Shown piece by piece: positions 5,176 to 20,613 of a stretch of 37,711 bases of DNA. The DNA is from a virus (lineage: Duplodnaviria > Caudoviricetes). The first letter of the stretch is position 1. Every line of letters starts with the position of its first letter. The stretch spans positions 1-37,711 of IMG/VR virus record IMGVR_UViG_3300043391_000311. One strand, given 5' to 3'. A program made the translations under genes and the position numbers. Below the pieces are notes generated by a model. That model was not told the DNA's origin and did not search any database. It saw only the letters and a program-made list of their open reading frames with translations.

Positions 5176-6009
5176 TTATTGTGTGGAGATGAAGCCGCGA
5201 CGTGAGCGAACGAGCGCGGAGTCGTAGGACGGTGGAAGAGCGCGGCCTTTGCCTTGGCGTGAATCTTTTTGCTGAGCCGCTGGTCCGATCAGGCGCTCGA
5301 ACTGCCCTCGGAGTTCTGCGGCTCTTCCAGCCGGGCCGGTCAATTCCTGCGCAATGTAGGACGCCAGCACCAGGGCAAAGGCATTGACAAACTCCTGCGG
5401 CCAGTTGGCGGTGGTGGTTTCTTGGAAAACGTAGGAAAGCAGGATCTCGTCAGCGTCGCACAATATCTTCGATCCTTCGACCGCGTAGCGCTGTGAATCT
5501 TCCTCGTTGCCTTCCAGCCCGTTGACTTTGTTCACGCGAAGACAGTCCGCAGGCTTAGTATGCTGGTAGTCCCAGCCAAACAAAGGTGCCAGAATCCATT
5601 CGCCCGTGCCGCTTGTGTGAGCGCCGCTAAAGACGGATCCTTGCAGGTCGAAAGTGTTGGCGTTGATGACCGTCACATACCATGAACCGTTAGCCGCAGG
5701 TGCACCGGTTACTTTGCGGATGTGAACGCGGTTGCCAGTCGTCAGGCCGTGAGACGTGGCCGTGACGCGGATCTCGTCACTTGCCCCAGCGTCAGCCAGC
5801 GCCACGCCTGACAGCGCCGTCCAAGTCAGCGTCAAACGCGCACGCTTAGCAGCAAAGTTCCACGGGTGCGAAGCCAGCGCCTCGTCGCGTGCCGCATCGA
5901 ACCACTTGCGGCAGACTCGCGCCTGCTGCGTGGCATCGGTGTCGAGGTTTGTCATCTCCTTGGCAGAGATGAGCGACAGCGCAAGATTGGCGATTTCAGT
6001 TTCAGTCAT
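5176..6009 (-). CDS. Tail tubular protein A / head-tail adaptor (T7 gp11-like) with an inserted beta domain
   Basis: ETEIANLALSLI, RDEALASHPWNFAAKR, PADCLRV, F..AFALVLASYIA motifs. Confidence 0.88.
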   Translation of the reverse strand: MTETEIANLALSLISAKEMTNLDTDATQQARVCRKWFDAARDEALASHPWNFAAKRARLTLTWTALSGVALADAGASDEIRVTATSHGLTTGNRVHIRKVTGAPAANGSWYVTVINANTFDLQGSVFSGAHTSGTGEWILAPLFGWDYQHTKPADCLRVNKVNGLEGNEEDSQRYAVEGSKILCDADEILLSYVFQETTTANWPQEFVNAFALVLASYIAQELTGPAGRAAELRGQFERLIGPAAQQKDSRQGKGRALPPSYDSALVRSRRGFISTQ

Positions 6010-6024
6010 GGCGTTTCAAAATGA

Positions 6025-6059
6025 AGCCCTCGCCGCCCACATGAAAGACGACGAGGGCT
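6025..6059 (-). terminator. Stem-loop, probable intrinsic terminator after the capsid-associated gene
   Basis: minus strand AGCCCTCGTCGTC-loop-GGCGGCGAGGGCT followed by TCATTTT. Confidence 0.55.
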
Positions 6060-6086
6060 AAGGACTCCACCAACCACGAGGAGATT

Positions 6087-6566
6087 TTAAGCGAGGTCGT
6101 AAGTGATCGTCCAGACCTGCGTGTGAGAGATCGCCACGGTGGCCGTCGTCCAAGTGGCGACAATCCAAGCGTCTTGATCCAAGTTTGCTGGGGCCAGAAT
6201 GCCGGCGCCAACGGTGCCAGCTTCGGTGAAGTTCTTGCGACCAGCGGCAGAGCCGAGGGCAAGACCAGAACCGAAAACGTCATCATCAATCGCAACCGGA
6301 GTTGCGGCGACAGTGAACGTCCCGATTTTACCCGTGAGGGCGTCGCCAGGGTCACCGTAGTCCACAGAGCAGAGTTGCGGAATCAAACGCGCACCTTTTG
6401 GCAGGCGAGCGATGAACAGCGGATCAGCCGTTGCGGCGGTGTAGCCAGTCATGCGGACCTGAAGTGTTTTCAGGTTGCCGCCGTAAAGCTTGACGTTTGG
6501 AGCCTGCGAGATGTCAGAGACAGCCGAAGCTTGGAGAGTTGCGAAGTCAGTGAATACGTTAGCCAT
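6087..6566 (-). CDS. Capsid-associated/decoration protein (BPP-1 Bbp16-like position)
   Basis: 159 aa beta-rich protein with IARLPKGARL motif, directly after the major capsid gene. Confidence 0.6.
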   Translation of the reverse strand: MANVFTDFATLQASAVSDISQAPNVKLYGGNLKTLQVRMTGYTAATADPLFIARLPKGARLIPQLCSVDYGDPGDALTGKIGTFTVAATPVAIDDDVFGSGLALGSAAGRKNFTEAGTVGAGILAPANLDQDAWIVATWTTATVAISHTQVWTITYDLA

Positions 6567-6599
6567 AATCGTGAAGAGTAGAGTTTGAGAAAGGGAAGA

Positions 6600-6625
6600 G
6601 AGCGGGAGCCTTTCGACTCCCGCTC
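6600..6625 (-). terminator. GAAA-tetraloop hairpin after the major capsid gene (terminator or attenuator)
   Basis: minus strand GAGCGGGAGTC-GAAA-GGCTCCCGCTC followed by the pyrimidine tract TCTTCCCTTTCT. Confidence 0.65.
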
Positions 6626-6634
6626 AAGATTGGG

Positions 6635-7528
6635 TTACGGGCTTTCGTCCGCGTAGATGCGAACGACCTTTTCGTTTTCGGTGCGAACAGCACCGCAGCG
6701 ATAGACGCCACGGATTTGTTTGCAGTGGCGACGGCTTGGCAGCATGTCCATGTGGGTGTTGCGGCCACCTTCGGCGAACTTGATGCCGGACTTGTGCCAC
6801 GCGAAGCAGGTGCGGACATCGGTCGAAGTGTTCCGAGTCAGCAGTTCGGTGCGAACGAACTTGAAGCCAAGGAAGCGGTCGATCTTGCCGTCCACGAGAG
6901 CTTTCACGCTCGCGTAGTCTTCGGAGGTCATTTTGTCCACCAGCAGCATGTCTTGAAGCTGCTGTGAAGAGTGGGCAAAATAACGGTCGCCGTCATCGAC
7001 TTCCTGCTCGTCCAAGAGCTTCTTGGCGCGGCTGATCTTCGCCAGTGTCAGGCCGCTGTTAGCGGTCGAACCAGAGGCGACGTAATCAGCAGCGATGGAC
7101 ATTCCGCCAGAGAACGAGTTAGAGGTCGTGCCGTTCTCGCCGATGTAGCGAGTGCCATCGAATGCCTGGATGATGACGCGGTCTTTGGTGCGGTTAGAGG
7201 CCGCAGCCATAGAAGCCACTTCATCAGAGTCAGGCAAGGCGATGGTGCCAAGCTGGATTTCATCATCTTCATCAAAGACAATGACCTTCTCGAACTTGCG
7301 TCGGAAGATCCAGTAGCTATCGCCGGTCGAATCGCCGTCTGGCGTGTCGCCCTTGCGTTCGGTGACTTCGGACATTTCGCCTTCGTCGAGTTGGTTGAAC
7401 TTGCGGCGTTTGCCGGTGATGGTCGTCGGCGTCACGGCGGCGCCGAGACGGGAGTCCATCTGTTGTGCGAGCATTTCCCAGTTTTTGGAATACTCGGTTT
7501 CAAAGTATGTTGGCAGTTGATCGGGCAT
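6635..7528 (-). CDS. Major capsid protein (BPP-1 Bbp17-like)
   Basis: LAQQMDSRL, AAASNRTKDRVII, GLTLAKI..AKKLL, TSEDYASVKALVDGKIDRFLGFKF, GAVRTENEKVV motifs. Confidence 0.92.
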   Translation of the reverse strand: MPDQLPTYFETEYSKNWEMLAQQMDSRLGAAVTPTTITGKRRKFNQLDEGEMSEVTERKGDTPDGDSTGDSYWIFRRKFEKVIVFDEDDEIQLGTIALPDSDEVASMAAASNRTKDRVIIQAFDGTRYIGENGTTSNSFSGGMSIAADYVASGSTANSGLTLAKISRAKKLLDEQEVDDGDRYFAHSSQQLQDMLLVDKMTSEDYASVKALVDGKIDRFLGFKFVRTELLTRNTSTDVRTCFAWHKSGIKFAEGGRNTHMDMLPSRRHCKQIRGVYRCGAVRTENEKVVRIYADESP

Positions 7529-7569
7529 AGCGATAAAAGAGATTTAGATTTTGCGAGAATGGCTTTTCC

Positions 7570-7670
7570 GAGTCGTGGATTTGCCGGGTGTTACCCTCTC
7601 GCGGGTGTCTCTTTCGAGGCCGCTGCTTGGCTCTCGCGGGTATCCCTGGCAACAGGGGCCGCTTTGACTC
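7570..7670 (-). ncRNA. Putative structured 5' leader of the capsid gene with two tandem hairpin units
   Basis: units at 7596-7624 and 7631-7663 share AGCGGCC-[hairpin]-GAYACCCGCGAGAG on the minus strand; GAGTC/GACTC could close the element. Confidence 0.5.
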
Positions 7671-7715
7671 TGTGGTGAAGGGGCGGAACTCTTTGCCGAA
7701 TGTCAAACAAGAAAT

Positions 7716-8288
7716 TTACTCTGCCTTAAATCCACACACGGCACGAAGCGATTGCATGGGAAATGCCGGGCCAGGATCGACCTTCCGGCTTGGTGCAATG
7801 TCATCATGACCGACGACGTCGTCGAGCTTGTAGCGTGCAACGAGCGCTTTGGCCACTTCTTCGCAGGCGTTGAGTTGCGCGATGGGATAGGCTTCCCACT
7901 TCTTGAGTGTGCCACCGTTTTTGTGGCGGGCCTCGACCGGCGGGAACTGTGACCAGCGCTTCGTCAGACGCTCGTCATCGCCAGCGTTGGCTAGCTCGAT
8001 GCCGATGGAGCACGAGTTCAGATTGCTGAACTGTTGCCAGCGCGAGACTCCCGCATGCCCGCAGGTGACGTTGAACGGGCGGCACTGGTAAACGGTGCCG
8101 TTGCGGTCGATGACGATGTGAGCGGAGGCACCTTTAGCCGCTGGCGTGCGCCAAAACTCAATCGAGCTTTCGGCTGTCGCTCCACTCGTGAAATGAATCA
8201 CAAGGAAGCGACGAACGGGCATGGCTGCACCCCCAGGAATTGGTCGGCGTAAAGCTCCTTCGAGCCAATGGTCGGCGCTGATTTTCAT
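7716..8288 (-). CDS. Endolysin, N-acetylmuramoyl-L-alanine amidase (Amidase_2 family)
   Basis: LVIHFT, ASAHIVIDRNG..YQ, GHAG, NSCSIGIEL, VGHDDIAPSRKVDPGPAFP motifs. Confidence 0.93.
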   Translation of the reverse strand: MKISADHWLEGALRRPIPGGAAMPVRRFLVIHFTSGATAESSIEFWRTPAAKGASAHIVIDRNGTVYQCRPFNVTCGHAGVSRWQQFSNLNSCSIGIELANAGDDERLTKRWSQFPPVEARHKNGGTLKKWEAYPIAQLNACEEVAKALVARYKLDDVVGHDDIAPSRKVDPGPAFPMQSLRAVCGFKAE

Positions 8289-8437
8289 CTGCGCTTCACG
8301 CGAGGTTGAGTTCCGTTGCGCTTGTGAGCTTCGGCGAGCTTGCGGTCCACCCAGCGGTCAAACCTATGCATGACAAACATGACGAACAGCAAAAGGCACG
8401 CGCCGACGAATGTCCAAGCTAGCGTTTGCGCAATCAT
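8285..8437 (-). CDS. Small single-TM membrane protein (possible holin or lysis accessory)
   Basis: 50 aa from ATG 8437 (ATGA overlaps at both ends): MIAQTLAWTFVGACLLLFVMFVM then a basic tail. Confidence 0.55.
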   Translation of the reverse strand: MIAQTLAWTFVGACLLLFVMFVMHRFDRWVDRKLAEAHKRNGTQPRVKRR

Positions 8438-9399
8438 GCTTTGACCCCCTGGAGCCGCATCATAAGCGCTGCGGCTTCCTGTTGGCGTGCTGGTCCTTCT
8501 TTGCCAAAGTAAGCGGCATGCCACGGGTTATTCGTGTTGCGGCGGATGTCTTCAGCCTGCGCCTTGCCATCCATCACGATGCCTGCCTTGTCGTTGCCAA
8601 CGAGTGCGTCAGGCTTAATGAGATTCGATACGGTCAGCATCGCCTTCACGAACTTGGCGTTGTTGGCTAGTTCGTTGTCGTTGATGTCGAAGCCTGCCAT
8701 CTGCGCAGCCTTTGCAGCCTTGCCAAGATTCGCATCAAAGTCAGCGCCCCAGTCTTTGCGCAGTTCCGCTTCCTGCGACCGCACGAACTCATCGAGCTTT
8801 GCCTGCCCCGATTGATGCAGTTTCGCCATGCGCTGCGCGTCGAACTCGACGAGCTTTTGAGCCGCTGCGGATGGGATGTTCAGCGAGTGCGCCAATTTTG
8901 CAAACTCGCCGACTTCCGCTTCGTTCCACGTCAGACCGTCGGGCAGCTTGTCCGGCTTGGCGATCTTGTAATCCTCAACCTTTGCCGGGACGCCAAGCAC
9001 ATCGCGAATCTGCGCGTTGAACTTCTCCACCTCTTCCGGCTTCGCGTCTGGAGCAGGCGCTTTAAGCGTGGACTTCTGGCCGATGAGCTTTGATGCGTTG
9101 GCGTGGCCGCGCATGAGTTCAAGCGGATTCGGATACTTTGCCAGCGTAGCAGCCGAAGGCTTGAGATCGTCAGGCAAAGCGGCGTCCCAGCCCGCTCTAA
9201 AGTTGCCCTTGTCATCGAGCGCGGAACGAAAGTCCCAGGCGGACGATCCGCCATCGGCGTCGCCTTGTTGCGATTGTTGCGGTTGCTGCTGACTTGCGCC
9301 GCCGCCGTCGTTCGAAGCACGTCCAAGCAGAGTGCCGCCGCCTTGGCTACCACCGTCGCCGCCTTCGTCTTCAAGAATGAATCGTGGGTGAAGCTTCAT
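8434..9399 (-). CDS. Capsid scaffolding/assembly protein
   Basis: 321 aa; Gly/Gln-rich acidic N-terminus, LGVPAKVEDYKI, ELRKDWGADFDANL, NPWHAAYF C-terminal motif; between portal and capsid. Confidence 0.8.
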   Translation of the reverse strand: MKLHPRFILEDEGGDGGSQGGGTLLGRASNDGGGASQQQPQQSQQGDADGGSSAWDFRSALDDKGNFRAGWDAALPDDLKPSAATLAKYPNPLELMRGHANASKLIGQKSTLKAPAPDAKPEEVEKFNAQIRDVLGVPAKVEDYKIAKPDKLPDGLTWNEAEVGEFAKLAHSLNIPSAAAQKLVEFDAQRMAKLHQSGQAKLDEFVRSQEAELRKDWGADFDANLGKAAKAAQMAGFDINDNELANNAKFVKAMLTVSNLIKPDALVGNDKAGIVMDGKAQAEDIRRNTNNPWHAAYFGKEGPARQQEAAALMMRLQGVKA

Positions 9400-10834: not shown

Positions 10835-12525
10835 GCTGCCATTGCTCCTTTCAGTGCCTCGACTCCACCCAGATTGCCAACGGCCTTGGCTCCCTGTTCC
10901 ACGGCTTGCATCTGCGCAGCTTGTGCTTGTGCCTGCGCCTGCGCCTCCATGCGCTGCTGGACGACTTCCTCGTCAAGAATGTAGTCGGTAGGAACGCCAG
11001 CGTCACGAGCGCTGCCACGCGCCCAACGAATCCAGTCGAACGGCTCCATGACTTCAGGCCGCAGAGGAGCGAGCGAGACAATGCGCTGAATGTGCCGGTC
11101 GGCGTCGATGTTCCGCAGCGATTTAATCGCCAGGGCGAGGCGAGACGAAAAGGTGACCATTGGATTCGGCACGATGCCGACGAACTCGGAGACGCGCTGA
11201 ATCGCCTCTTGCGGAGGCGTTGGCAGCATTCCGGATTCCATCCACAGGTTGAACAATCCTTGGAGCATCGGCGTGTGCTTCTCGTTTACGATCCGCGAGA
11301 AAGCCGGAGTGATGGCGGTGATCTTTTCGGCCGCACGCTCGTTGATTTCTGTGGCAGTGCGGATGCCGTCCAACCCTTCAAACATGTTGAAAAGTTGCGC
11401 GTGAAACTTCGCACGAATGGACTCTTGGCGCATCTTCACGCGATCCTGGCCGACGTTGTAGTCACCACCGATTTGCAGCGGTTTCGGCTCCATCATTCCC
11501 GTGTCGATGTAGGTGATGCCGCCAGCCGAGAGCACGATGTCACCCTCCATTCGGCTGTCAGCGATCATAGCCGGGCGCACGCGCTTCTCGGCCTCGCAGT
11601 CCATCATCATCTGGAGGAAGTTGATTTGCCGAGTGTCTGGCAATGCGGCAAAGCCAGGGCCGTAGCCGTAGGCGGTCTTGCCTTCCAGCGCCGTCCATTT
11701 CAGGAAGCGCCCGACGCTGAACGGGAAATAATCAAAGCCCGATTCCTTCAGCGTGTGTTTCTCACCAAGCTCGACGTAGTAGCTTGCGAACGCTTTGCCC
11801 CAGTCGGCCATGCGGGCAATCTCGTTGTCGGGGCGCTCGCTTTCTGGCCGTGGGTAAACGGCGTGTAGAATCTTGATCTTGGCGAGCTTCTTTGTGTCAT
11901 CGCCCAAAGCTTCGCGGGACTTGGTGGACAGGTTATCAGCGCCGAAATGCTTGGCGCTTTCTTCGATAGTCCACTCAAACTCGCGGAACAAAACATCGAC
12001 CACGCCAAAGCGATTCTCATCGATGCAGTAAGAGGCAGTCGGGAGATGCTCAAAGCGGAGCTTGCCATCTTCCAGCGCGTAGTAGAGCGCCGAAGTGCCG
12101 AACCCACAGTGCGAGAGCAGATCCTCATGCGCCTCGGTGTAATAACTGGAGTTGCTCAGGTATTCCCGCGCCAGTTCGGAACATTCCTGCGTCCACTTTT
12201 TGACACGGTCAGATCCGCGCAGTTCGCGGGTTGGGTCAAAGCCAAACCACGGCTCATTGGCTGGCATCATCCAGGACATCAGCCCGCCGGCCATTGTCAT
12301 GAGCGCATCGCCTGCCGTTGTGTCGAAGAGCAAACCTTCGCGAGAGGTGTCCGGCAGATTGACCTTGCTGGAGATGCCAGCCGAGCGGGGGGCCATCAAG
12401 TCGGCGATTTCCTGCCACTGGACAAGCCACGGCATTCGGTCGGCCTGCATTTGCTGCCACCGCTTGCTTAGCTTTTCTGCTTTTTGGGCAGAGTTAGAAG
12501 GTTCAAGGTTCACCGGTGTAAGCAT
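10831..12525 (-). CDS. Portal (head-to-tail connector) protein
   Basis: 564 aa; WQEIADLMAP, FDTTA..A...MAGGLMS..MP...PWF, FGTSALY, ESGFDYFPF...RF, YGYGPG..ALPD, RTATEI.ER..EK motifs. Confidence 0.95.
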   Translation of the reverse strand: MLTPVNLEPSNSAQKAEKLSKRWQQMQADRMPWLVQWQEIADLMAPRSAGISSKVNLPDTSREGLLFDTTAGDALMTMAGGLMSWMMPANEPWFGFDPTRELRGSDRVKKWTQECSELAREYLSNSSYYTEAHEDLLSHCGFGTSALYYALEDGKLRFEHLPTASYCIDENRFGVVDVLFREFEWTIEESAKHFGADNLSTKSREALGDDTKKLAKIKILHAVYPRPESERPDNEIARMADWGKAFASYYVELGEKHTLKESGFDYFPFSVGRFLKWTALEGKTAYGYGPGFAALPDTRQINFLQMMMDCEAEKRVRPAMIADSRMEGDIVLSAGGITYIDTGMMEPKPLQIGGDYNVGQDRVKMRQESIRAKFHAQLFNMFEGLDGIRTATEINERAAEKITAITPAFSRIVNEKHTPMLQGLFNLWMESGMLPTPPQEAIQRVSEFVGIVPNPMVTFSSRLALAIKSLRNIDADRHIQRIVSLAPLRPEVMEPFDWIRWARGSARDAGVPTDYILDEEVVQQRMEAQAQAQAQAAQMQAVEQGAKAVGNLGGVEALKGAMAA

Positions 12526-12799
12526 TGGCTGATCCGCCTAGAGTCGATGCAAAGCCACGGTTGCGGCTCATGCTGCCTAGCACGTCGCCTTGCATGGCGT
12601 CCATGCCGCCGATGCGGCGCTTGCTTGCGGCCTTGACGCTTCTTTTTGCGCCTTGCGAATCGGCACGCATAGGAGCGGCGACTGGCGCAGGTTCAGGAGG
12701 CGCGACTGGAGCAGGTGGTGCGCCACCACCGCCGCCGAAATAGAGGGGCCAGCCGAGGAGGCACTTTTGCAGGAAGGCGAAGAGTGAGATTGTCCGCAT
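12503..12799 (-). CDS. Small virion/tail assembly protein (T7 gp7.3-like position)
   Basis: probable start ATG 12799; FGGGGGAPPAP Pro-rich stretch and RNRGFASTLGG tail, directly before the portal. Confidence 0.6.
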   Translation of the reverse strand: MRTISLFAFLQKCLLGWPLYFGGGGGAPPAPVAPPEPAPVAAPMRADSQGAKRSVKAASKRRIGGMDAMQGDVLGSMSRNRGFASTLGGSANAYTGEP

Positions 12800-12806
12800 G
12801 GACAAC

Positions 12807-13175
12807 TTAGGGCGGAACTCGCCCAGGAATTGCAAGCGCTTTGTTTAGCAGGTTAGAAGCTTCGGCAAACCGGGCCGCTTTGCCGCGCCGGGCAAAGCCA
12901 AGCCAAGGCAGTGCTTGCGGAAGCCATCGAGCAGCTACGCTTAAATCGCCAGCCAGCACCCAGAGGAACCAGCAGTCGGCGCTATCCAACGGCTCCACGT
13001 CCCAAGGATCGTTCAGCCTGCCCGGCTCCCAATCACGGCGCACAGGTCGAGCCATGCCAAACGCCTGCGGAGTCGAGACAACGTATCCGCGCTCGAAGTG
13101 AGCAGCGAGATCTTGATCAAAGCTCATGCCGGGATGCAGCCGGTAGAGCTTGCGGACCTGCTCAATCGGAGTCAT
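12807..13175 (-). CDS. Hypothetical protein between TerL and portal
   Basis: 122 aa, GYVVSTPQAFGMARPV...DCWFLWVLAGD; ATGA overlap with the TerL stop. Confidence 0.65.
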   Translation of the reverse strand: MTPIEQVRKLYRLHPGMSFDQDLAAHFERGYVVSTPQAFGMARPVRRDWEPGRLNDPWDVEPLDSADCWFLWVLAGDLSVAARWLPQALPWLGFARRGKAARFAEASNLLNKALAIPGRVPP

Positions 13176-14773
13176 CGCCTGCCCACGAAGCTGAATTTTG
13201 CCGCTCCTCTCCGGCGCTCTCGTGGCTTGTCGTCGGCCTCCAGGTTGCTGTTGATGAATCCCTGCTCATCCGCCGCGCCAAAGGTAATCATGGCGTCAGC
13301 GCCGTGCGAGTTGATGTCGTGCAATGGCAGTGGTCGCAGCGCTCCGCTCGCCGCTTTTGGCTGCGTCCGGTAGTTGGACAAACAGCCGATGCCCGAAGGC
13401 AGCGACTCGCCGAACTCATCGACCTGGAGCGCCTCGCAAGCCGGGTCGAACCACATGCGCGGAAGCCGGTCACGAACGGCGTTGATTCCGTCCCATTTGT
13501 CGCCGGCGATGGGAATCGTAATGATCTTGTGGTTGGGAATGCCTGCTTCCGTCAACTGCTGACGGTAGGTCTTGGAATAGCCTCTGTCCCGGTAATCAAC
13601 GTCGTGCGGAAAGAAGTGTTTGGCGATGCTCTTCCCGACTTCCTGTTCAAGCTGGCGAATCCATTCCGCTGCCATGACGGCACCTTGCCCGGTGGTGAAC
13701 CGGAACCGATGCCATAGGATGTCGCGCCCGGCCTGCTGTCCAAGCCAGCACGAAAGCCCGTCGTTGCCGATGTCCCAGAAGGTCGAAAGCGGGTATTTGG
13801 CTTCAATGGCAAGCGAGCGAATGCGTCCGCCGCTCTTGATCGTCACCATGCCAGGGAAGATTTGGCCGCTGACAATCGACCTCACGCACTCATGCGCCAC
13901 GGTCGGGAACTGCGTCCAGATGTCGTCCTTCTGTTCCGCCTTTTTTTTCTCATACCATGCCCACCTGGAAGCAGGCAGGATGATGGCATGCTTCTCCTGC
14001 ATCTCGCGCATGTAGGCCAGCGTTTCCGGCTTCTCTGGCTCGTGTCCTGGCAGGTCGTAGGAGGGATGGCCGAACCACGCGAAGAAATGCAGCCGCCAGT
14101 CCATGCGCGTGAGCGGCTTTCCCACCATCGAAAGAGCGAGGTCGAAAATGTCGCGGGCAATCGTCCCTTCTCCGCCTTCCATTGTCGTCTCGATGTCGAT
14201 GATGCCCGCAGCGCCGATGGCATTGAGCGAGCCGCGTTTGACCTTCCTGGCCCGATCTGGCGCCTGCGCAGACATTGGCCCGGCCTCCGACCAGTGCAGA
14301 CGGCGCGGAGTGCCACCCATGAAGCTTGTTCCCGCCTCCTGCCTCGATCCATTTGCCCAGTTCAGACAGCCCTGCGCATCGCTCGCCAGCGGATTGACCT
14401 TGTGGATCTGTCGCCAGCACGCGGCAATGACAGGGTTCGGATGCAGCGGCCCGGCTTTCCACGCAGCGCGGGCGATGTCGAGCTTTTTGAAGGCGTCGTC
14501 CTCCTTGAAGTCAACATGAGCACAATGCGTCTTCGGCGTCGTCAGACACTCGTCCAGGTAGTCGAGCACGATCAGCGTGCTCATGCCCAGCTTGCGGGCT
14601 TTGGGCGTCATGTTGCGGCTGTGGCGTTCGCGCAGGTATTGCTCCTGCTCGCCGCGCAGGACGAACGGGATCATGCCTCCATCCGCATCATCTTCCGGCA
14701 GGATCTGGTAAAGGTTCCGCATCCTCCACTCTTTGGAGGCGAGGCAGGCGGCGATTTGTTCGGGCGGGATCAC
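13172..14773 (-). CDS. terL: Terminase large subunit
   Basis: WRMRNLYQI, KARKLGMST (Walker A), LHWSE (Walker B), IETTMEG, WDIG...FFPHD...HDINSHGADA RNase H-like nuclease domain. Confidence 0.95.
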   Translation of the reverse strand: MIPPEQIAACLASKEWRMRNLYQILPEDDADGGMIPFVLRGEQEQYLRERHSRNMTPKARKLGMSTLIVLDYLDECLTTPKTHCAHVDFKEDDAFKKLDIARAAWKAGPLHPNPVIAACWRQIHKVNPLASDAQGCLNWANGSRQEAGTSFMGGTPRRLHWSEAGPMSAQAPDRARKVKRGSLNAIGAAGIIDIETTMEGGEGTIARDIFDLALSMVGKPLTRMDWRLHFFAWFGHPSYDLPGHEPEKPETLAYMREMQEKHAIILPASRWAWYEKKKAEQKDDIWTQFPTVAHECVRSIVSGQIFPGMVTIKSGGRIRSLAIEAKYPLSTFWDIGNDGLSCWLGQQAGRDILWHRFRFTTGQGAVMAAEWIRQLEQEVGKSIAKHFFPHDVDYRDRGYSKTYRQQLTEAGIPNHKIITIPIAGDKWDGINAVRDRLPRMWFDPACEALQVDEFGESLPSGIGCLSNYRTQPKAASGALRPLPLHDINSHGADAMITFGAADEQGFINSNLEADDKPRERRRGAAKFSFVGRR

Positions 14774-15048
14774 AGCGTCACGAAATGGAACTCCTTTCCA
14801 AAAAGCAAGCTGCTGTTCGGGTGAAGAGCATCTCTTTGAAAATAGTTCATTAGCAGATAGGCCTAACGCTAATGAGCGATTGCGCTATATTAGCCCATTT
14901 TCAGACTTTTTAGCGCAATGGGCTGTTCGGGAACTTTTGACCATGGTGAGGTGCCACACGAAAAAGGGCGGTTTTTCGTGAGGCAGATTTAAGGCGACAA
15001 GATCAAGTGAGCACGCATCAAAAGCGCCGCCGCCTTTTCGACCCCTTG

Positions 15049-15138
15049 TTGTTGATTGCTCATTCCCTAGACGCACCGCAATCAACAATTAGCCCCCCCC
15101 CTTGTTGTTTGCATTGTTCATCGGCTGCAATCAACAAG
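15049..15138. repeat. Four copies of GCAATCAACAA arranged as two inverted-repeat pairs
   Basis: 15049-15059 pairs with 15078-15088; 15101-15113 pairs with 15126-15138 (one mismatch); separated by a C9 run. Confidence 0.8.
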
Positions 15139-15358
15139 CCTCCCCTCTTGCCGTAAAAAGCGCAGTTGACATCCTGCACCGAGTTCCGCCTTTTTGTCGC
15201 ACGGTTGCCGTTCGTGAGCAGCTGACAGCTATCAACGGCACCGACAGACGCGACGAGCGAGCGGATTGCTAGGCACTCACGGACCAGCACGCCAGCGTCA
15301 CAGGCTTCATTACGGCCTTACCCCCCCCTTGGGGAGGGCCGTGGGAGGGGCCGAGCGT

Positions 15359-15547
15359 TTACTTGCGCTTTTGCTCTATACGTCTGCGTAAAGGCTTCGT
15401 GATGGTAACCGTTTCATGTGTAACGCTGGCATGATTGATGGATTTAATGCGGCCAAGAATATCGGGGGCCTTGTCAGTCAGCCGGTTAATTGCAGCGAGA
15501 TTATTGCGGTTGTGTGGCAATGTAATCGTAAGTCGAATGTATTTCAT
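15359..15547 (-). CDS. Hypothetical basic protein
   Basis: 62 aa directly after TerS, ACCACACTAC leader. Confidence 0.5.
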   Translation of the reverse strand: MKYIRLTITLPHNRNNLAAINRLTDKAPDILGRIKSINHASVTHETVTITKPLRRRIEQKRK

Positions 15548-15558
15548 GTAGTGTGGTC

Positions 15559-15975
15559 TTACTTCCTTCCAAACGTGGCCGCAATCGCCTCAGACAAGCC
15601 AGGGATCTCCACGCTGCCAGAGTGCTTCACCTCATCTGGAGCATACCAAGCTGACGCTTTGCCGACTTCACGAAGGGCACCGGTCGCGGCAGAAAAGTCG
15701 CCGATCTCCTCGGCCTTCCCAGCGATTCCTTCGAGTCGATCGAGCCACTTATCCTTCGTAAGTCCAAATCTCTTATCAGCTGCCTCCGATACTTTCGCCT
15801 TCAGTGCTGCGATCCTGTCGCCGACATGCTTAGCCAGCGCTTTCCCCTCGGTCTTACCCGTTTCATACGAGCACTTGCCATTGCTGACGTGTTCGGTGTA
15901 AGCCTGGACAGCAGACATGCCCAGTGCGACCGCTTGCGCAAAGGCTTCGTGTTTTTGGTTTTTGAGTGCTGGCAT
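15559..15975 (-). CDS. terS: Terminase small subunit
   Basis: MPALKNQKHEAFAQAVALGMSAVQAY HTH-like start, AATGALREVGK, VKHSGSVEI tail; upstream of TerL. Confidence 0.85.
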   Translation of the reverse strand: MPALKNQKHEAFAQAVALGMSAVQAYTEHVSNGKCSYETGKTEGKALAKHVGDRIAALKAKVSEAADKRFGLTKDKWLDRLEGIAGKAEEIGDFSAATGALREVGKASAWYAPDEVKHSGSVEIPGLSEAIAATFGRK

Positions 15976-15980
15976 AGGTA

Positions 15981-16009
15981 ATGATGCGATACTCGCAAAT
16001 TGATGTCAA
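15981..16009 (-). promoter_or_regulatory. Sigma70-type promoter for terS (probably leaderless)
   Basis: minus strand TTGACA-17 nt-CATCAT, 5 nt before the terS ATG; abuts attC-1. Confidence 0.5.
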
Positions 16010-16010
16010 T

Positions 16011-16075
16011 GTCGAACGTCCGATGCAGCGAACTGCTTCGCTGAGGCTCAGTCGTCGCTGATCTTTTGGTTCTGG
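16011..16075 (+). mobile_element. Integron attC-like recombination site (attC-1)
   Basis: R'' GTCGAAC, 5 nt, L'' ATGCAGCG ... L' CGCTGAT, 6 nt, R' GTTCTGG; canonical spacing, arms pair with unpaired (extrahelical-type) bases. Confidence 0.8.
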
Positions 16076-16251
16076 GAAGAAATAGACCCGCCATCGAAGT
16101 CCTTTTGCAGTCCAAGCCTTTCGACCTGCTCCTGGCACCAAGTGGCAAAATAAGAAGCGGCATCCTTTCGCACATCCTTGATGTCCACTCCGTATTCATT
16201 CGCCCATTTCTCAGGGTCTATCTCGATTGTCTGCGTTATCTTGATTTTCAT
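16048..16251 (-). CDS. Hypothetical 67-aa cassette protein whose stop codon lies inside attC-1
   Basis: MKIKITQTIEIDPEKWANEYGVD...SQNQKISDD; TAATG overlap with the Mom-like stop (the ORF track over-extends it to 16731). Confidence 0.7.
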   Translation of the reverse strand: MKIKITQTIEIDPEKWANEYGVDIKDVRKDAASYFATWCQEQVERLGLQKDFDGGSISSQNQKISDD

Positions 16252-17002
16252 TACAGTAGGATTCCTTGTGTTTGCGGTTTGTGTGATGCGTCGTATCTGG
16301 AGTTGTTGCCTTTCGGGTAGGTCTTGATTTCGTATCGAAGGTCTTTCGCCATCGCTTTGCGTTCCTTTTTCGACCCATGAAAGAGAATGTATCGGTGCTT
16401 GCGGTCGCGTGGTTTCCAATACACGTCGTCGCCGTATTTCTCCTTCATCTGATCCTTGGTCATTCCGCGCCCCATTCCAGCCGTGCCGTGGTGCTTTCCT
16501 TCGTGGCCTTTCACCACGGGATCGTAAGTCAGCGTCGAGAGTCCCGTGTAGATGAAGTTGGTCGCCTGATACACGAACCCATGATGCCCCTTGCTGCTGT
16601 CTGCGTATGAGACGATGATCTTTGGTCGTGGCAGCATCGCCACGCATCGTGAGACGAAGAAGGAGGCGAGGTTTTTGCATCCGATTTCGTTTATCACGAG
16701 TCGGTTTAGTTCGCAGACATTCGCCGCCCATTCTTCACCGCATACGCCTTTTAGGAGAGTAGAGCTTACTGGCGTTCCGAAAGTGCAAACCCCTTGCAGA
16801 ATCATCTTTGCATCATACAGGCCGAATGCCCATGAGATTGAGGGTATCCGCTTCGCGTAGTGCTTCATCAGTAGCCATTCATAGGTTTCTTTGGAGTCGA
16901 TAGGCCGCACCGAAAAAGACCCAGAACAAGACGCTGCATGGAACGCCGAGGATCGTCCATCTTGAATCGGGCATTTAATGTCGGCGTCCATGAGCTTATG
17001 CG
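16070..17002 (+). mobile_element. Integron-type gene cassette (933 bp) carrying two inverted genes
   Basis: left junction G/TTCTGGG is the exact reverse complement of CCCAGAAC (16920-16927), the R'' end of its own attC. Confidence 0.78.
16251..16991 (-). CDS. Mom-like (GNAT-fold) DNA adenine modification enzyme
   Basis: KHY, FGLY...GVCTFG, ELNRL, SFFVSR, IIVSYAD..GHHGFVYQATNFIYTG, KHRY motifs match the Mu Mom-like family. Confidence 0.8.
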   Translation of the reverse strand: MDADIKCPIQDGRSSAFHAASCSGSFSVRPIDSKETYEWLLMKHYAKRIPSISWAFGLYDAKMILQGVCTFGTPVSSTLLKGVCGEEWAANVCELNRLVINEIGCKNLASFFVSRCVAMLPRPKIIVSYADSSKGHHGFVYQATNFIYTGLSTLTYDPVVKGHEGKHHGTAGMGRGMTKDQMKEKYGDDVYWKPRDRKHRYILFHGSKKERKAMAKDLRYEIKTYPKGNNSRYDASHKPQTQGILL

Positions 17003-17008
17003 TTCTCA
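16921..17008 (+). mobile_element. Integron attC-like recombination site (attC-2)
   Basis: R'' CCAGAAC, then GCTGCATGGAACGCCGA pairing with TCGGCGTCCATGAGC except for an extra G and an extra A, then R' GTTCTCA; spacers 6 and 7 nt. Confidence 0.85.
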
Positions 17009-17151
17009 GACTTAACCCATCGGGCTTTTGCGGCCTTCGACGCTGCCGCGCTTCGCGTTTTCTTCGTCGTGCCCTTCCATCGGGCCTTACCGCCTTTCGT
17101 GCGGCCTTTGTCTGGCGGCAGTTCGCCGCCGCAGTGCGGGCAAGTTTTCAT
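16996..17151 (-). CDS. Small basic putative DNA-binding protein (CxxC plus GGKARW...AAKARW); stop inside attC-2
   Basis: 51 aa from ATG 17151 (ATGA overlap): MKTCPHCGG...KGGKARW...AASKAAKARWVKSENA. Confidence 0.7.
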   Translation of the reverse strand: MKTCPHCGGELPPDKGRTKGGKARWKGTTKKTRSAAASKAAKARWVKSENA

Positions 17152-17420
17152 GCTGCGGAAAATGGACGCTTGGCAATATAAACGGAATGAGCCTTTGTTT
17201 CTGCATCTTTTTCTGACGGAAAGAATGCCCAGTTGCCAAGAGCAAACGATGCCTTGTAACCAAACACGCCATCCACCCAAGCAGGAATTGCCTCAACTGT
17301 TTTAACCTTGCTCGCCTTGCCATCTATCACATCCCACATCGTGAGCGCGTAGCGCGACACCCTGCAATTGTATGACAATCTCTCTGTTCCGATCTTGCGC
17401 ACGGTAAATGCTGTTTTCAT
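17148..17420 (-). CDS. Hypothetical protein
   Basis: 90 aa, directly behind its own promoter. Confidence 0.65.
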   Translation of the reverse strand: MKTAFTVRKIGTERLSYNCRVSRYALTMWDVIDGKASKVKTVEAIPAWVDGVFGYKASFALGNWAFFPSEKDAETKAHSVYIAKRPFSAA

Positions 17421-17426
17421 GTTCTG

Positions 17427-17454
17427 AGTATATGCGAGCTAGCACGCAGCGCAA
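17427..17454 (-). promoter_or_regulatory. Leaderless sigma70-type promoter with a palindromic spacer (possible operator)
   Basis: minus strand TTGCGC-16 nt-TATACT, 6 nt before ATG 17420; spacer TGCGTGCTAGCTCGCA is a near-palindrome. Confidence 0.65.
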
Positions 17455-17463
17455 GCCCTATTT

Positions 17464-18096
17464 TCAATAAGCCCACTTGGCATCGCCCAAGATTTCGTCT
17501 GAATCAGACCACCACTCATCCCACTGAGCGTTTGTCGCAACGCTCCAGCCTGGGATGGTTGCGGCTGCGTCCTTGCCGGTCAGCGACATCGGCATCCACT
17601 TGATGCGGTTGTTCGGGTAGATTGCGATTTGCCCGTTGGATAATTTGAGGACATTGCCCTCCTTGTGCTCTTCAAGAAGCTCACAATCGCCGATGTCCAA
17701 GGTGCCTGAACCTTGGGATTCTGGGAGGTAGTCAAGAGTGAACCAGTAGTGACCGCCGATGGGTGGCAATCCTTTGCCCAGATTCACGAGCACCGGCACA
17801 TCGCTCAACTGATCCTTGCGCCATAGTTCGATGGATCCTGACAGGCACTCCCACATCTGGACCTTGTGCAATGGCAATGCCGTGTGATCATCTTCCGGCT
17901 CAAACCAATAGACGCACTGCGGCGGCACTTTGTCGAAGCAGGCGGCGTATCGCTCCACCCACACTTGGAAGCACAAGGGTCGATTGCGCATCGCTCGAAC
18001 AGAGACAAGCCACGCGGGTTCAAATTCGTCTTCTGAGCCACCGAAGGCGTCACAGCGGATGAAGACTTTGGTTTTGGGTAAGTTGACGTTTCTCAT
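17464..18096 (-). CDS. Conserved hypothetical phage protein
   Basis: 210 aa; QMWECLS, GHYWFTLD, EEHKEGNVLKLSNGQIAIYPNNRI resemble a widespread uncharacterised phage family. Confidence 0.7.
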   Translation of the reverse strand: MRNVNLPKTKVFIRCDAFGGSEDEFEPAWLVSVRAMRNRPLCFQVWVERYAACFDKVPPQCVYWFEPEDDHTALPLHKVQMWECLSGSIELWRKDQLSDVPVLVNLGKGLPPIGGHYWFTLDYLPESQGSGTLDIGDCELLEEHKEGNVLKLSNGQIAIYPNNRIKWMPMSLTGKDAAATIPGWSVATNAQWDEWWSDSDEILGDAKWAY

Positions 18097-18144
18097 GCAG
18101 TTCGTGGGGTGGTTGTGGTAGTGGTCAGTGGTTGGCTCATTAGT

Positions 18145-18534
18145 TCAGGGACGGGCTGTTTTTTCACCGTGGCAGCGCGAACATGGTCGGTAGGTTTCGC
18201 CATCAGCGATTGAGACGCTGGCGAGAGTTTGGCCTGTGCCAGTGCAGCGGTAGCATCGGTTGTTTTTCTGCTCCCATGCCAGCTTCCAAGTAAGATGGTC
18301 GGCAATGCTGACCACGAACTCCCGGCGGGTTGATTTGTCCATTTTCCGCCAGTTGCGGCGGCCCTTCCTTGGGCCGCGTGTGATGAGCGGTGCCACGACC
18401 CCCGTGATGGAGAAATGCGTGGCGATGTAATCTTTCTGCCCGTCCTGGTGTCTGGGTAGGCAGGTAAACTGGTATCCCTCCCATTCAGCCGAGAGGTCGA
18501 GTGATTCGCGGGCTTGTAAAACGAGTAAGTTCAT
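18145..18534 (-). CDS. Hypothetical protein with DnaJ-type zinc finger
   Basis: CYRCTGTG...CSRCHG. Confidence 0.65.
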   Translation of the reverse strand: MNLLVLQARESLDLSAEWEGYQFTCLPRHQDGQKDYIATHFSITGVVAPLITRGPRKGRRNWRKMDKSTRREFVVSIADHLTWKLAWEQKNNRCYRCTGTGQTLASVSIADGETYRPCSRCHGEKTARP

Positions 18535-18540
18535 GTGGGA

Positions 18541-18909
18541 TTATTGGTGGCGCATGCATCGCATGCATTTGCGGACGCAGCCATCATGCGGAAACCAGAC
18601 GACGCCGGGGAGTTGGTGAACGCCGTTTGCTGCGTTGGCGCATGCGGCCTGCCCGTTGAGCAGAAAATGAGCCGAGTCGTGGTGAAGTGACTGCATCCAT
18701 TGGCCGGTTTTAGCCGATTCAGATGGTGGCGGCGTGGTTGCATGCAACGCAAATTTGTCTGGCGTCGTGGTGGTTGCATGGCGTCGATACAGCCAGGACT
18801 TAAGCGTGCTCACCGGCAACTGCAGTTCCTCGGCAATGGAAGCAAATGTCCGGCCTTGTCGCCGGGCCTGGACGGTGATCTCGCGGAGAATAGGCGAATG
18901 CGATTTCAT
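18541..18909 (-). CDS. HTH DNA-binding protein with C-terminal His/Cys cluster
   Basis: probable start 18909; QGRTFASIAEELQLPVSTLKSWLYR helix-turn-helix; H...C...CMRC. Confidence 0.65.
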   Translation of the reverse strand: MKSHSPILREITVQARRQGRTFASIAEELQLPVSTLKSWLYRRHATTTTPDKFALHATTPPPSESAKTGQWMQSLHHDSAHFLLNGQAACANAANGVHQLPGVVWFPHDGCVRKCMRCMRHQ

Positions 18910-19109
18910 CCGTGCCTCCTGTTCCATACGGCGATGAACTCCGAAAGCTTTAGCCCCTCACCGTCATTCATCCGGCAGGCGCATTTTTCGTGATCGCATT
19001 CGATGAAAGCACAGCCGGGCAGGTAACCGAGTTGCGGCTTGGCATCGCGCCTGCGCTTGCATTTGGCAGTTAGATTGAAGTGGTTCATGATGCGCTCGAA
19101 GTCGGTCAC
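18906..19109 (-). CDS. Small Cys-rich hypothetical protein
   Basis: probable GTG start 19109 (GTGA overlap); ends AVWNRR as in Lar-like zinc proteins. Confidence 0.5.
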   Translation of the reverse strand: MTDFERIMNHFNLTAKCKRRRDAKPQLGYLPGCAFIECDHEKCACRMNDGEGLKLSEFIAVWNRRHG

Positions 19110-19285
19110 AGTTTTGTGCCCTCCCATTCTGACAGCGCCTGCATGCCATTGCGGAAATGCGGCTTTGTTGGGCGAGGCGGTAGTGCAGGCAATCTGCGCA
19201 TGGTGGCGATGAGCTTGGCGAGCTTGCGCCCGAATGCGTGGTTGTTTGGATCGTGGTTCACAAGCGGATCGGGGATGAGGTTCAT
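19106..19285 (-). CDS. Hypothetical 59-aa protein
   Basis: manual translation MNLIPDPLVNHDP...EWEGTKL; ATGA and GTGA overlaps fill the gap exactly. Confidence 0.55.
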   Translation of the reverse strand: MNLIPDPLVNHDPNNHAFGRKLAKLIATMRRLPALPPRPTKPHFRNGMQALSEWEGTKL

Positions 19286-20613
19286 GATTCGGTGTGTTCT
19301 CTGAATTGGAAAATGGAGCCGAGGAACTTCAGCTTAAGCTCCCAGTGCCGTTTTCCGCCGCGGCTTTTGTCGCACCAAAGCGTCCGCATGGCGTCGTTCA
19401 AGCCGGTTTCAGAATTCTCGTCGGTGCATTTCTTGAGCATGAAGACCTTGTCGGCATCCTGGCCGATAGCCCTGGATTCGCGCAGCTTGCCCGAATCGTT
19501 GAGTTGGCTGGCTGTCAGGATCACTTTGCCGGTGCGGCGGGCGAGACGCTTCTGGCGCCGGGAGATGCTGGCAAGCACACCTTCACGGGTGTCTGACTTC
19601 CGAGCACTGCTGTCCTCCATGAGTTGCAGGTAATCGACCACTACCAAGTCGCAATCGGAGCGTTCAATGTCGGCAAAAATGTCGGTGGCGCTCGCATCCT
19701 CCACGTCCACGAGTTCGACGTTTGCGTTGCGTTTGAGTCGTGCCACGGCGCTCACAAGTGCTTGCTGCTCACCGTTGGTCAGAACGCCGTTGTAGAGACT
19801 GCCGTTGTCCACCTGGGCACTGCTGGCAAGGAGACGCAGCATTTGCTCGTTGTGGGGCATTTCGAGCGGATACCAGCGCACCTTGCGGCCATCCATCGCA
19901 GCGGCTTCCGCGCAGTTCTGGATGATCGTCGATTTGCCGTCTCCAGGTTCGCCGGCGAAAACCCAGACCTGTCCTGGCATCATGCCTCCCGTGTTTCGGT
20001 CGATGGTCGGAAATCCGGTGCAGATGCCGGGAAGCCTGCCAGGATGCTTTGACCTTTGCTCGATCTCGGCAAGCAGCGGGTCGATGGCTTCCATCAACGT
20101 GTGACTTTTGAGCAGTTGACCAGGGAGCTTGCCAGCTTCCTCCATCATGCCTTTGATGTCGTCCACGGTCGTTGCCACCTCGCCATCTTTGGCGTTGAAA
20201 AGGCGGTCGAGAGCGCGGGCGTGCGCCTCGATGTGCTTCCGCTGGCTGAACAGTTCGCGCAGGATTCCGAGATAATACGGGAAATGCGATGTAATCGGCA
20301 CGAAGCTGAAAAGCTCCGAGATGACCGCCGGGCCACCGACGTGGTCAATCCGTCCAAGCTGGCGCAAACGATGCGTTACATTGACGGGATCAATGGGACT
20401 GCCTTCAATAGCCTCGTCAACGAGCAGCACGAAGATCTCGCGATGTGCTGGGTGCTGGAATAGCCCTGGCGGCATTGTGTGCAGATTAGCGGCGATGCGG
20501 TTTGGATCTTGAAGCAGGCAGGAAAGAACGCCTTTCTCGGCCTCGTCGCTGAAAGGCATCGGGCGGTTGAAGGTGCCGAGAAGTTCTTCGGCGGATGGAA
20601 GTGGATTGGTCAC
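19282..20613 (-). CDS. dnaB: Replicative DnaB-like helicase
   Basis: PFSDEAEKGVL N-domain, TGFPTID, Walker A AGEPGDGKS, LEM, VVDYLQLM, SQLN, LRESRAIGQDAD. Confidence 0.93.
   Translation of the reverse strand: MTNPLPSAEELLGTFNRPMPFSDEAEKGVLSCLLQDPNRIAANLHTMPPGLFQHPAHREIFVLLVDEAIEGSPIDPVNVTHRLRQLGRIDHVGGPAVISELFSFVPITSHFPYYLGILRELFSQRKHIEAHARALDRLFNAKDGEVATTVDDIKGMMEEAGKLPGQLLKSHTLMEAIDPLLAEIEQRSKHPGRLPGICTGFPTIDRNTGGMMPGQVWVFAGEPGDGKSTIIQNCAEAAAMDGRKVRWYPLEMPHNEQMLRLLASSAQVDNGSLYNGVLTNGEQQALVSAVARLKRNANVELVDVEDASATDIFADIERSDCDLVVVDYLQLMEDSSARKSDTREGVLASISRRQKRLARRTGKVILTASQLNDSGKLRESRAIGQDADKVFMLKKCTDENSETGLNDAMRTLWCDKSRGGKRHWELKLKFLGSIFQFREHTES

Follow-up and report, generated by a model that had tools for sequence, protein, structure and literature searches.

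Integron cassettes are taught as promoterless genes that stand before their attC, all in one orientation, and are read by a bacterial promoter; to our knowledge, how such cassettes are made is an open question. In sedentary chromosomal integrons, such as those of MAG contigs L276 and L262 used here for comparison, the genes run in the sense direction, start after the G/TT crossover and end near R'', with intI divergent from them. Phages carry integron elements as well. In the available text of Qi et al. 2023 (PMC9892861), complete integrons (intI and an attC array within the phage genome) are given for Shewanella M16-3, Vibrio p16 and P1, together with 17 phage CALINs, virulent phages (TJE1, PH101 and P12002L) included, and methyltransferases among the cargo; five of the six phage attC sites tested recombined with IntI1. 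According to the accessible portions of the structural literature, the top strand of attC is the one with extrahelical bases on the AAC arm (PMC5027507), and the bottom strand folds into the recombinogenic form (PMC5027507, PMC5371416). In the available part of Nivina et al. 2020 (PMC7439510), a designed attC was placed inside coding sequence, so that the folded site was also protein-coding. Mu Mom, in the accessible text of PMC13219725, modifies adenine and protects against restriction.

The DNA analyzed here (the window, 37,711 bases) is a complete virus genome with direct terminal repeats (DTR). Like the phage CALINs, as far as the available text of PMC9892861 describes them, it has at least two attC, no intI and DNA-modification cargo, with an integrase that would act in trans. 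Its two sites lie 0.9 kb apart with no integron integrase nearby, which corresponds to a CALIN, with the reservation that attC1 could fail a strict score threshold. It is not a complete integron, with neither an intI nor a matching junction to the left of attC1 (the junction expected there was not found within 12000-16015). The cassette array announced in an earlier note on this DNA thus stands as regards its attC sites and CALIN character and falls short of a long array, consisting of two sites and one intact cassette. Nor is this a conventional cassette, in which the ORF would precede its attC on the top strand; here the ORF is antisense and overlaps attC. The unusual part of the locus is the reversed cassette, not the presence of attC, and that main oddity, a gene antisense to the sites and likely starting inside attC2, was overlooked in the note. 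Its suspicion that attC in lytic phages might be new has to be dropped, since CALINs in virulent phages, with IntI1-active sites, are described in the text available of PMC9892861. On the other hand, we found no published class of reversed, site-starting cassettes: searches of the literature outside subscription journals yielded no description of such a phage class or of genes starting inside attC, and the available text of PMC9892861 mentions divergent attC directions for P12002L and no reversed cassette class.

Comparison with individual systems followed the same lines. TJE1 has conventional cassettes, whereas the window has an antisense gene with its likely start in the site. P12002L (L269, 29229-30059) has an antisense methyltransferase cassette with a 9-nt junction footprint, but there the start lies outside the site. 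The cassettes of Shewanella M16-3 are conventional, and the window, in contrast, has no intI. In Virus Rctr41k (KX853513; L288, 4680-10100), an IntI-like gene annotated xerD is followed, in the same direction, by ca. six attC sites with sense cassettes, two methyltransferases among them. Sedentary chromosomal integrons are alike in R and L boxes, AAC-arm extra bases, G/TT crossover and intI-attI-attC order, and phage-type integrons differ from them in having genes and intI co-directional. Compared with the designed sites in the accessible part of PMC7439510, attC2 appears to be natural and to code for an N-terminal part, from the antisense strand.

By PHROGs matches, the cassette region is flanked by tail, head, portal and terminase genes on the left and by helicase, replication, RecT-like and exonuclease genes on the right, all on the minus strand. 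The metagenome runs containing most of the stretch were from freshwater or lakes, and no similar DNA was found among GenBank phages. In the complete genome, profile searches gave no match to the tyrosine recombinase family PF00589 (0/1, E up to 10) or to the serine recombinase families PF00239 and PF07508, and tblastn with two IntI proteins gave zero matches, in agreement with the integrase-less genome of the note; PF00589 was also absent from five related viral records, all incomplete. A strictly lytic life of the phage would be plausible. The terS gene occupies the spot held by intI in related complete phage integrons, as seen in the comparison with the IntI loci, and its predicted promoter abuts attC1, which supports the position beside a terS promoter that had been noted before. 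This promoter was the sole match of the promoter scan, a result that alone is not significant (1 found versus 1.8 expected), and a similar -35 box was visible by eye in loci L082, L083 and L085-L088. The features of the region are collected in Table 1.

Table 1. Features of the terS-cassette region (window coordinates; L086, L087 and L177 are compared loci, and X6 is a metagenome run).
Feature	Position	Strand	Basis
terS (terminase small subunit)	15559..15975	-	phrog_51, E 3e-6
Predicted terS promoter (-35/17 nt/-10), abutting attC1	15981..16009	-	Promoter scan
attC1, orphan first site without cassette body	16011..16075	+	Anatomy, covariance model, L087 ortholog
67-aa ORF, function unassigned	16048..16251	-	ORF call; predicted start overlaps Mom stop
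Mobile unit, 933-bp cassette from G/TT to G/TT including attC2	16070..17002	+	Recurs in L086 and run X6
Mom-family DNA modification gene, 246 aa, antisense to attC sites	16251..16991	-	PF25680, phrog_1384, frame test
attC2, canonical attC, 5/6-nt spacers	16921..17008	+	Structural rule, fold, covariance model
Likely relic of next cassette, attC lost	17003..17456	+	L177 comparison

The right-hand site, attC2, is an attC site, with its AAC at 16925-27, its GTT at 17002-04, and the extra G and extra A both on the AAC arm. In place of IntegronFinder or HattCI, we used our own covariance model (R1) made from 20 conventional attC sites of class 1 plasmids, Shewanella M16-3, TJE1 and MAG chromosomal integrons; 20 of 34 candidates were retained after removal of sites inside ORFs, long sites and near-duplicates, and E-values are rough. 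Five matches were found in the genome, headed by attC2 (22.6 bits, E 0.007 as a rough value) and attC1 (12.4 bits, E 1.2, equally rough), and the coordinates previously given for two real attC sites proved to be exact. The claim that the extra G and A are equivalent in both sites was correct for their spacing, which is the same, and not for their distance from AAC, which differs. The probability of the recombinogenic fold (pfold), calculated after the method in the available text of PMC5371416, was 0.76 for the bottom strand of attC2 and 0.54 for the top strand, the former bracketed by the validated TJE1 sites (0.65 and 0.84). A plain repeat search singled out neither site. The attC2 family had matches at 79 viral loci and 14 genome loci, part of the latter being chance.

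The case for attC1 as an attC site rests on comparison; its L087 ortholog scores 19.3 bits and has common sequence as far as the GTT. Its anatomy would comprise R'' (16011-17, with AAC at 16015-17), L'' (16022-29), L' (16057-63) and GTT (16069-71), with the G/TT crossover at 16069/16070. The 4/5-nt spacers are atypical (0 of 74 cassette attC sites have them), the lowest-energy fold is a competing inner hairpin, and pfold was 0.03 versus 0.76 for attC2. An attC1-like piece in metagenome run X12 departs from the window sequence after 16072. Sites of this kind, with short 4/5 spacers, were seen at three loci (window 16011-16075, L087 4901-4965 and L273 1990-2060), always as orphan first sites without a cassette body; they adjoin the terS promoter in the window and L087, and in L273 the site lies at the end of a long, by eye terminase-like gene. 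The L273 homolog was missed by the covariance model and has a pfold of 2e-5. These short-spacer orphan sites may stand in for attI.

The 933-bp unit has the marks of an integron gene cassette, being discrete from G/TT to G/TT, with an R'/R'' footprint and differing contexts. At the left junction, GTTCTGGG (16069-76) and CCCAGAAC (16920-27) are perfect reverse complements of each other, as reported earlier; the right junction, said there to match less well, pairs with R'' at only two of four variable positions. The accompanying interpretation, insertion of a circular cassette at G/TT, gained support from footprint statistics and from three left contexts. Among 114 distinct adjacent site pairs from viral loci, R'' matched the left junction at 4/4 positions in 74 and the right junction in 5 (permuted mean, 5.3; maximum, 15 in 2000), with 40 pairs lacking a perfect footprint; these counts, like the cluster counts given below, are not independent, because cassettes are shared among related phages and an attC2 pattern served to choose many of the loci. 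The unit itself was found at ca. 99% identity beside three different left sites, in the window, L086 and a run X6 contig, and in each of the three contexts it breaks at the G of GTT. In locus L086, 16069-17500 is shared at 99%, and the G is preceded by the right half of a different attC. The X6 contig (1650 nt, from a separate study) matches 16069-17003 with four differences, is flanked on the left by a third attC arm, and on the right by unrelated sequence that begins with GTG, not GTT. Along the same lines, L087 has the terS promoter and attC1 as in the window up to the GTT, followed by other cassettes. Three unrelated left sites, the same break base and no homology leftward point to recent site-specific events. 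At a larger scale, 161 units gave 14 clusters of near-identical cassettes, in which the left flank differed in 9 and the right flank in 9, with the flank switches falling at G/TT; another Mom cassette was found in five contexts. Runs X1 and X3 may be the source of the window DNA. No excision joint or circle joint was present in eight of 24 metagenome runs, represented by contigs, from which rare forms drop out, and a metagenome scan with the cassette-start motif gave three matches, all with unrelated flanks.

To the right of the unit, the likely relic (Table 1) contains minus-strand ORFs at 16996-17151 and 17148-17420 and a conserved promoter-like stretch at 17425-17456 that was not detected by the promoter scan. 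Its counterpart in L177 shares the junction, includes a homolog of the 51-aa ORF and, at 97%, the 33-nt promoter-like stretch, and keeps an intact attC whose R'' matches.

The cargo gene was assigned to the Mom family with PF25680 (E 2e-33, 116 bits with a cut-off of 27.1, residues 26-227) and phrog_1384 (E 1e-49). In comparison to Mu Mom (PF25680), the window protein would have attC-encoded residues in place of the N-terminus, and its activity is a prediction. The first ATG sits in the L' arm of attC2, and the gene likely starts there, in which case attC2 would supply the codons for about 23 N-terminal residues. On the minus strand of this site, the TAA (16998-96) that ends the upstream 51-aa ORF comes 4 nt before the ATG (16991-89). 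An in-frame GTG just beyond R'' is an alternative start. Close Mom homologs mostly have no attC (3 of 65 loci have one, in one case weakly). The stop of the 67-aa ORF falls in the neighboring attC1, and in L086 a different neighbor provides an earlier stop; this ORF had no Pfam match and, among the loci compared, occurs only with the 933-bp cassette.

This layout recurs in related phage loci. Within the 74 footprint-positive cassettes (of 114 pairs) that the orientation counts cover, the gene was antisense in 68, the first ATG was inside attC in 49, and in 57 the stop fell within the left site or at the junction. We also followed the reading frame through 57 attC2-family sites, i.e., 70 distinct matches less 3 close to the end of a contig and 10 in which AAC was not where expected. 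The L'-arm ATG opened the longest frame in 56 of the 57, despite site lengths from 71 to 76 nt; the attC2 pattern fixes the ATG itself and not its frame, and changes in length alter the frame in which the arms are read. A TAA was found 4-10 nt upstream of this ATG in 42 of the 57, and 30 of 63 attC2-family ORFs matched DNA-modification Pfam families (Mom, N6/N4, C5 or MT-A70).

As for the source of the integrase, IntI-like genes adjoined arrays, within the flanks examined, at ten loci, eight viral plus MAG contigs L262 and L264 (L258/L209 and L250/L180 were counted once each, and two matches are partial). At these ten loci, IntI always lies leftward of the first site and is transcribed in the direction of the reversed genes, and an attI-like junction near the IntI start matches the first R'' at 7/7 bases in 10/10. 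TIGR02249 was the best family for all eight IntI proteins scanned and was over its cut-off in three. The L262 contig (Lentisphaerae MAG, 5773-8700) holds a chromosomal-looking integron, judged from its neighbors by eye, in which a reversed methyltransferase cassette of the attC2 family comes first, at attI, and a conventional cassette next. The ORF of that reversed cassette continues past the junction because the neighbor provides no stop. The chromosomal array of L276 (Spartobacteria MAG) has sense genes only, and its host-type sites carry the L box of attC1. IntI was over the cut-off in 5/5 MAGs searched and in 48 of 151 genomes of the class of this Spartobacteria MAG; terL relatives at 30-35% identity were present in 19 of 201 bacterial genomes of the same class, a figure that stands without a control class. 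Sites like attC2 were found in MAGs whose titles give Verrucomicrobiota, Spartobacteria, Terrimicrobiaceae, Kiritimatiellae or Lentisphaerae, as well as in two more; part of these matches are chance. On such sequence comparisons, the host of the phage may be Verrucomicrobiota-related. A prophage-like region in a Spartobacteria MAG (L258, 5795-8078), with genes that by eye look like head morphogenesis genes, has the same IntI as viral locus L209 and carries an attI-like junction and reversed cassettes; a related IntI is found in L218. Given IntI at ten related loci and a chromosomal integron with such a cassette, the integrase for the window's cassette may have been supplied by the host or by another phage or prophage. 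The host IntI invoked earlier is thus one possible source, and related phage and prophage loci with their own IntI are a second.

The explanation that we consider quite probable is a two-site phage-type integron remnant, with a reversed Mom cassette that likely starts in attC2 and was likely inserted by an outside IntI. In this mechanism, an integron integrase from the host chromosome, a prophage or a co-infecting phage would insert the cassette at G/TT, recombining the folded bottom strand while the phage DNA replicates, and the circular cassette would enter at attC1 via attC x attC recombination. Early transcription of the phage proceeds opposite to the array, so each attC precedes its gene and would act as a translation joint, in which 4 nt separate the upstream gene's stop from the start of the gene belonging to the site. 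The Mom cargo would protect phage DNA against restriction. Complete versions have intI downstream in the same operon plus an attI-like junction, and in this phage the terS promoter and attC1 occupy that place.

It is conceivable, and in our view unlikely, that IntI built the cassette in the past and that its sites now ride as fossils in modules swapped by RecT/exonuclease or illegitimate recombination, with attC2 kept for its start and stop codons. The RecT-like and exonuclease genes of this genome, the right-hand cassette without its attC and the pfold of attC1 would fit such a history, as would part of what is seen in relatives. From 12 terS loci, two identical to the window (100%) were set aside and ten were compared. 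The five closest relatives diverge from the window at 15988, and three of them rejoin at 17464, neither point being at a GTT, while half or decayed attC sites are found in L086, L083 and L085. Intact attC near terS (model matches) was present in only 4 of the 10; together with the breakpoints off GTT, this indicates that other recombination reshapes the interval. The 15988 breakpoint is inside the spacer of the terS promoter, and the alternative variant occurs in five relatives as well as in runs X3 and X10, the former of which also has the window form. A purely fossil cassette, however, would hardly occur at 99% identity beside three unrelated left sites, with the same break base and no homology leftward, and the pfold of attC2 is comparable with those of the validated TJE1 sites. 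Along with the remnant and its IntI-mediated insertion, which we prefer, cassette traffic and cruder module swaps both appear to act at the terS interval. Switches at G/TT, the pattern that the note proposed to look for in relatives, are seen in L086, L087 and X6; the five closest relatives break at 15988 and 17464. The idea that the phage keeps attC1 as a landing pad fared poorly, with attC1 kept in one of the ten terS relatives and in none of the five closest, and the case for it is weak.

The footprint is symmetric and alone cannot set polarity, and the match between the two junction sequences fits equally a reading in which the minus strand is the top strand, the gene has normal orientation and its own site is attC1. 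Occasional exchange on the R'' side would be in keeping with this: in P0001, a 91%-identical Mom body has a different N-terminus up to the R'' position, and 3 of 38 body-sharing pairs have unlike right sites. Against it, the right-hand site travels with the body in L086, in X6 and in 35 of the 38 pairs (a sample biased toward the attC2 family). The extra bases are on the AAC arm of the plus strand, which makes it the top strand by the available text of PMC5027507, and the covariance model matches both sites on the plus strand only. The IntI genes, the attI-like junctions and the conventional cassette of L262 give the same polarity. We regard this wrong-strand reading as very improbable and largely refuted. 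Near-identical gene bodies with different attC-encoded N-termini were also observed in L162/L210 and L191/L240, besides P0001; this suggests exchange at the R'' side now and then, or repeated cassette births.

A structural rule that recovers all three TJE1 sites gave attC2 a score of 13/13, which none of 60 dinucleotide-shuffled versions of the genome attained; in its strict form the rule misses attC1 and the L276 host sites (8-nt spacers), for both of which looser rules were used. The score of attC1 was 11/13, within the range of chance, as shuffled genomes yield 0.48 such sites per genome. That the hairpins are chance, or RNA structures for translation control or termination unconnected with integrons, is scarcely credible and is refuted for attC2: the folding-energy z-scores are weak (-0.4 to -1.6 versus shuffles, not significant), attC1 is within the shuffle range and a terminator-like match, itself within chance, overlaps attC2, but the attC2 score, the covariance matches, the junction statistics and the adjacency of IntI at ten loci speak against it, as does Rfam with 0 matches up to E 5 in 14500-19500.

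Beyond this locus, we lean slightly toward a broader proposal, that Verrucomicrobiota-related phages have their own reversed-cassette integron system, with attC as a translation joint, cargo consisting mostly of DNA-modification genes, and a phage IntI and attI, used in trans by phages that, like this one, lack an integrase, and with cassettes exchanged with the chromosomal integrons of hosts, its cassettes being born when an attC start module fuses to the native start of a phage gene. The fusion step would be visible in the comparison of the cassette Mom with an 88%-identical Mom without attC, which has its own ATG at the position equivalent to R''. If true, in the reversed phage class the same recombination chemistry would serve an operon of opposite polarity, and phages would be able to exchange anti-restriction genes quickly, a counterpart to the anti-phage cassettes known from bacterial integrons. 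The point at which the site was joined can be read from close gene pairs with and without attC, which thereby offer a handle on cassette making. The yield of this locus alone is modest, with one cassette and two sites, one of them weak.

Some other features of the genome were observed in passing. In the terS/terL interval, ca. 200 bases (window 15367-15568) are missing from L083, L084, L086 and the run X10 contig. A low-GC stretch is located near 31000-33000 of the window, and a 2958-aa protein (27943-36819) has an ART-PolyVal ADP-ribosyltransferase domain at residues 1722-1867 (E 3e-18).
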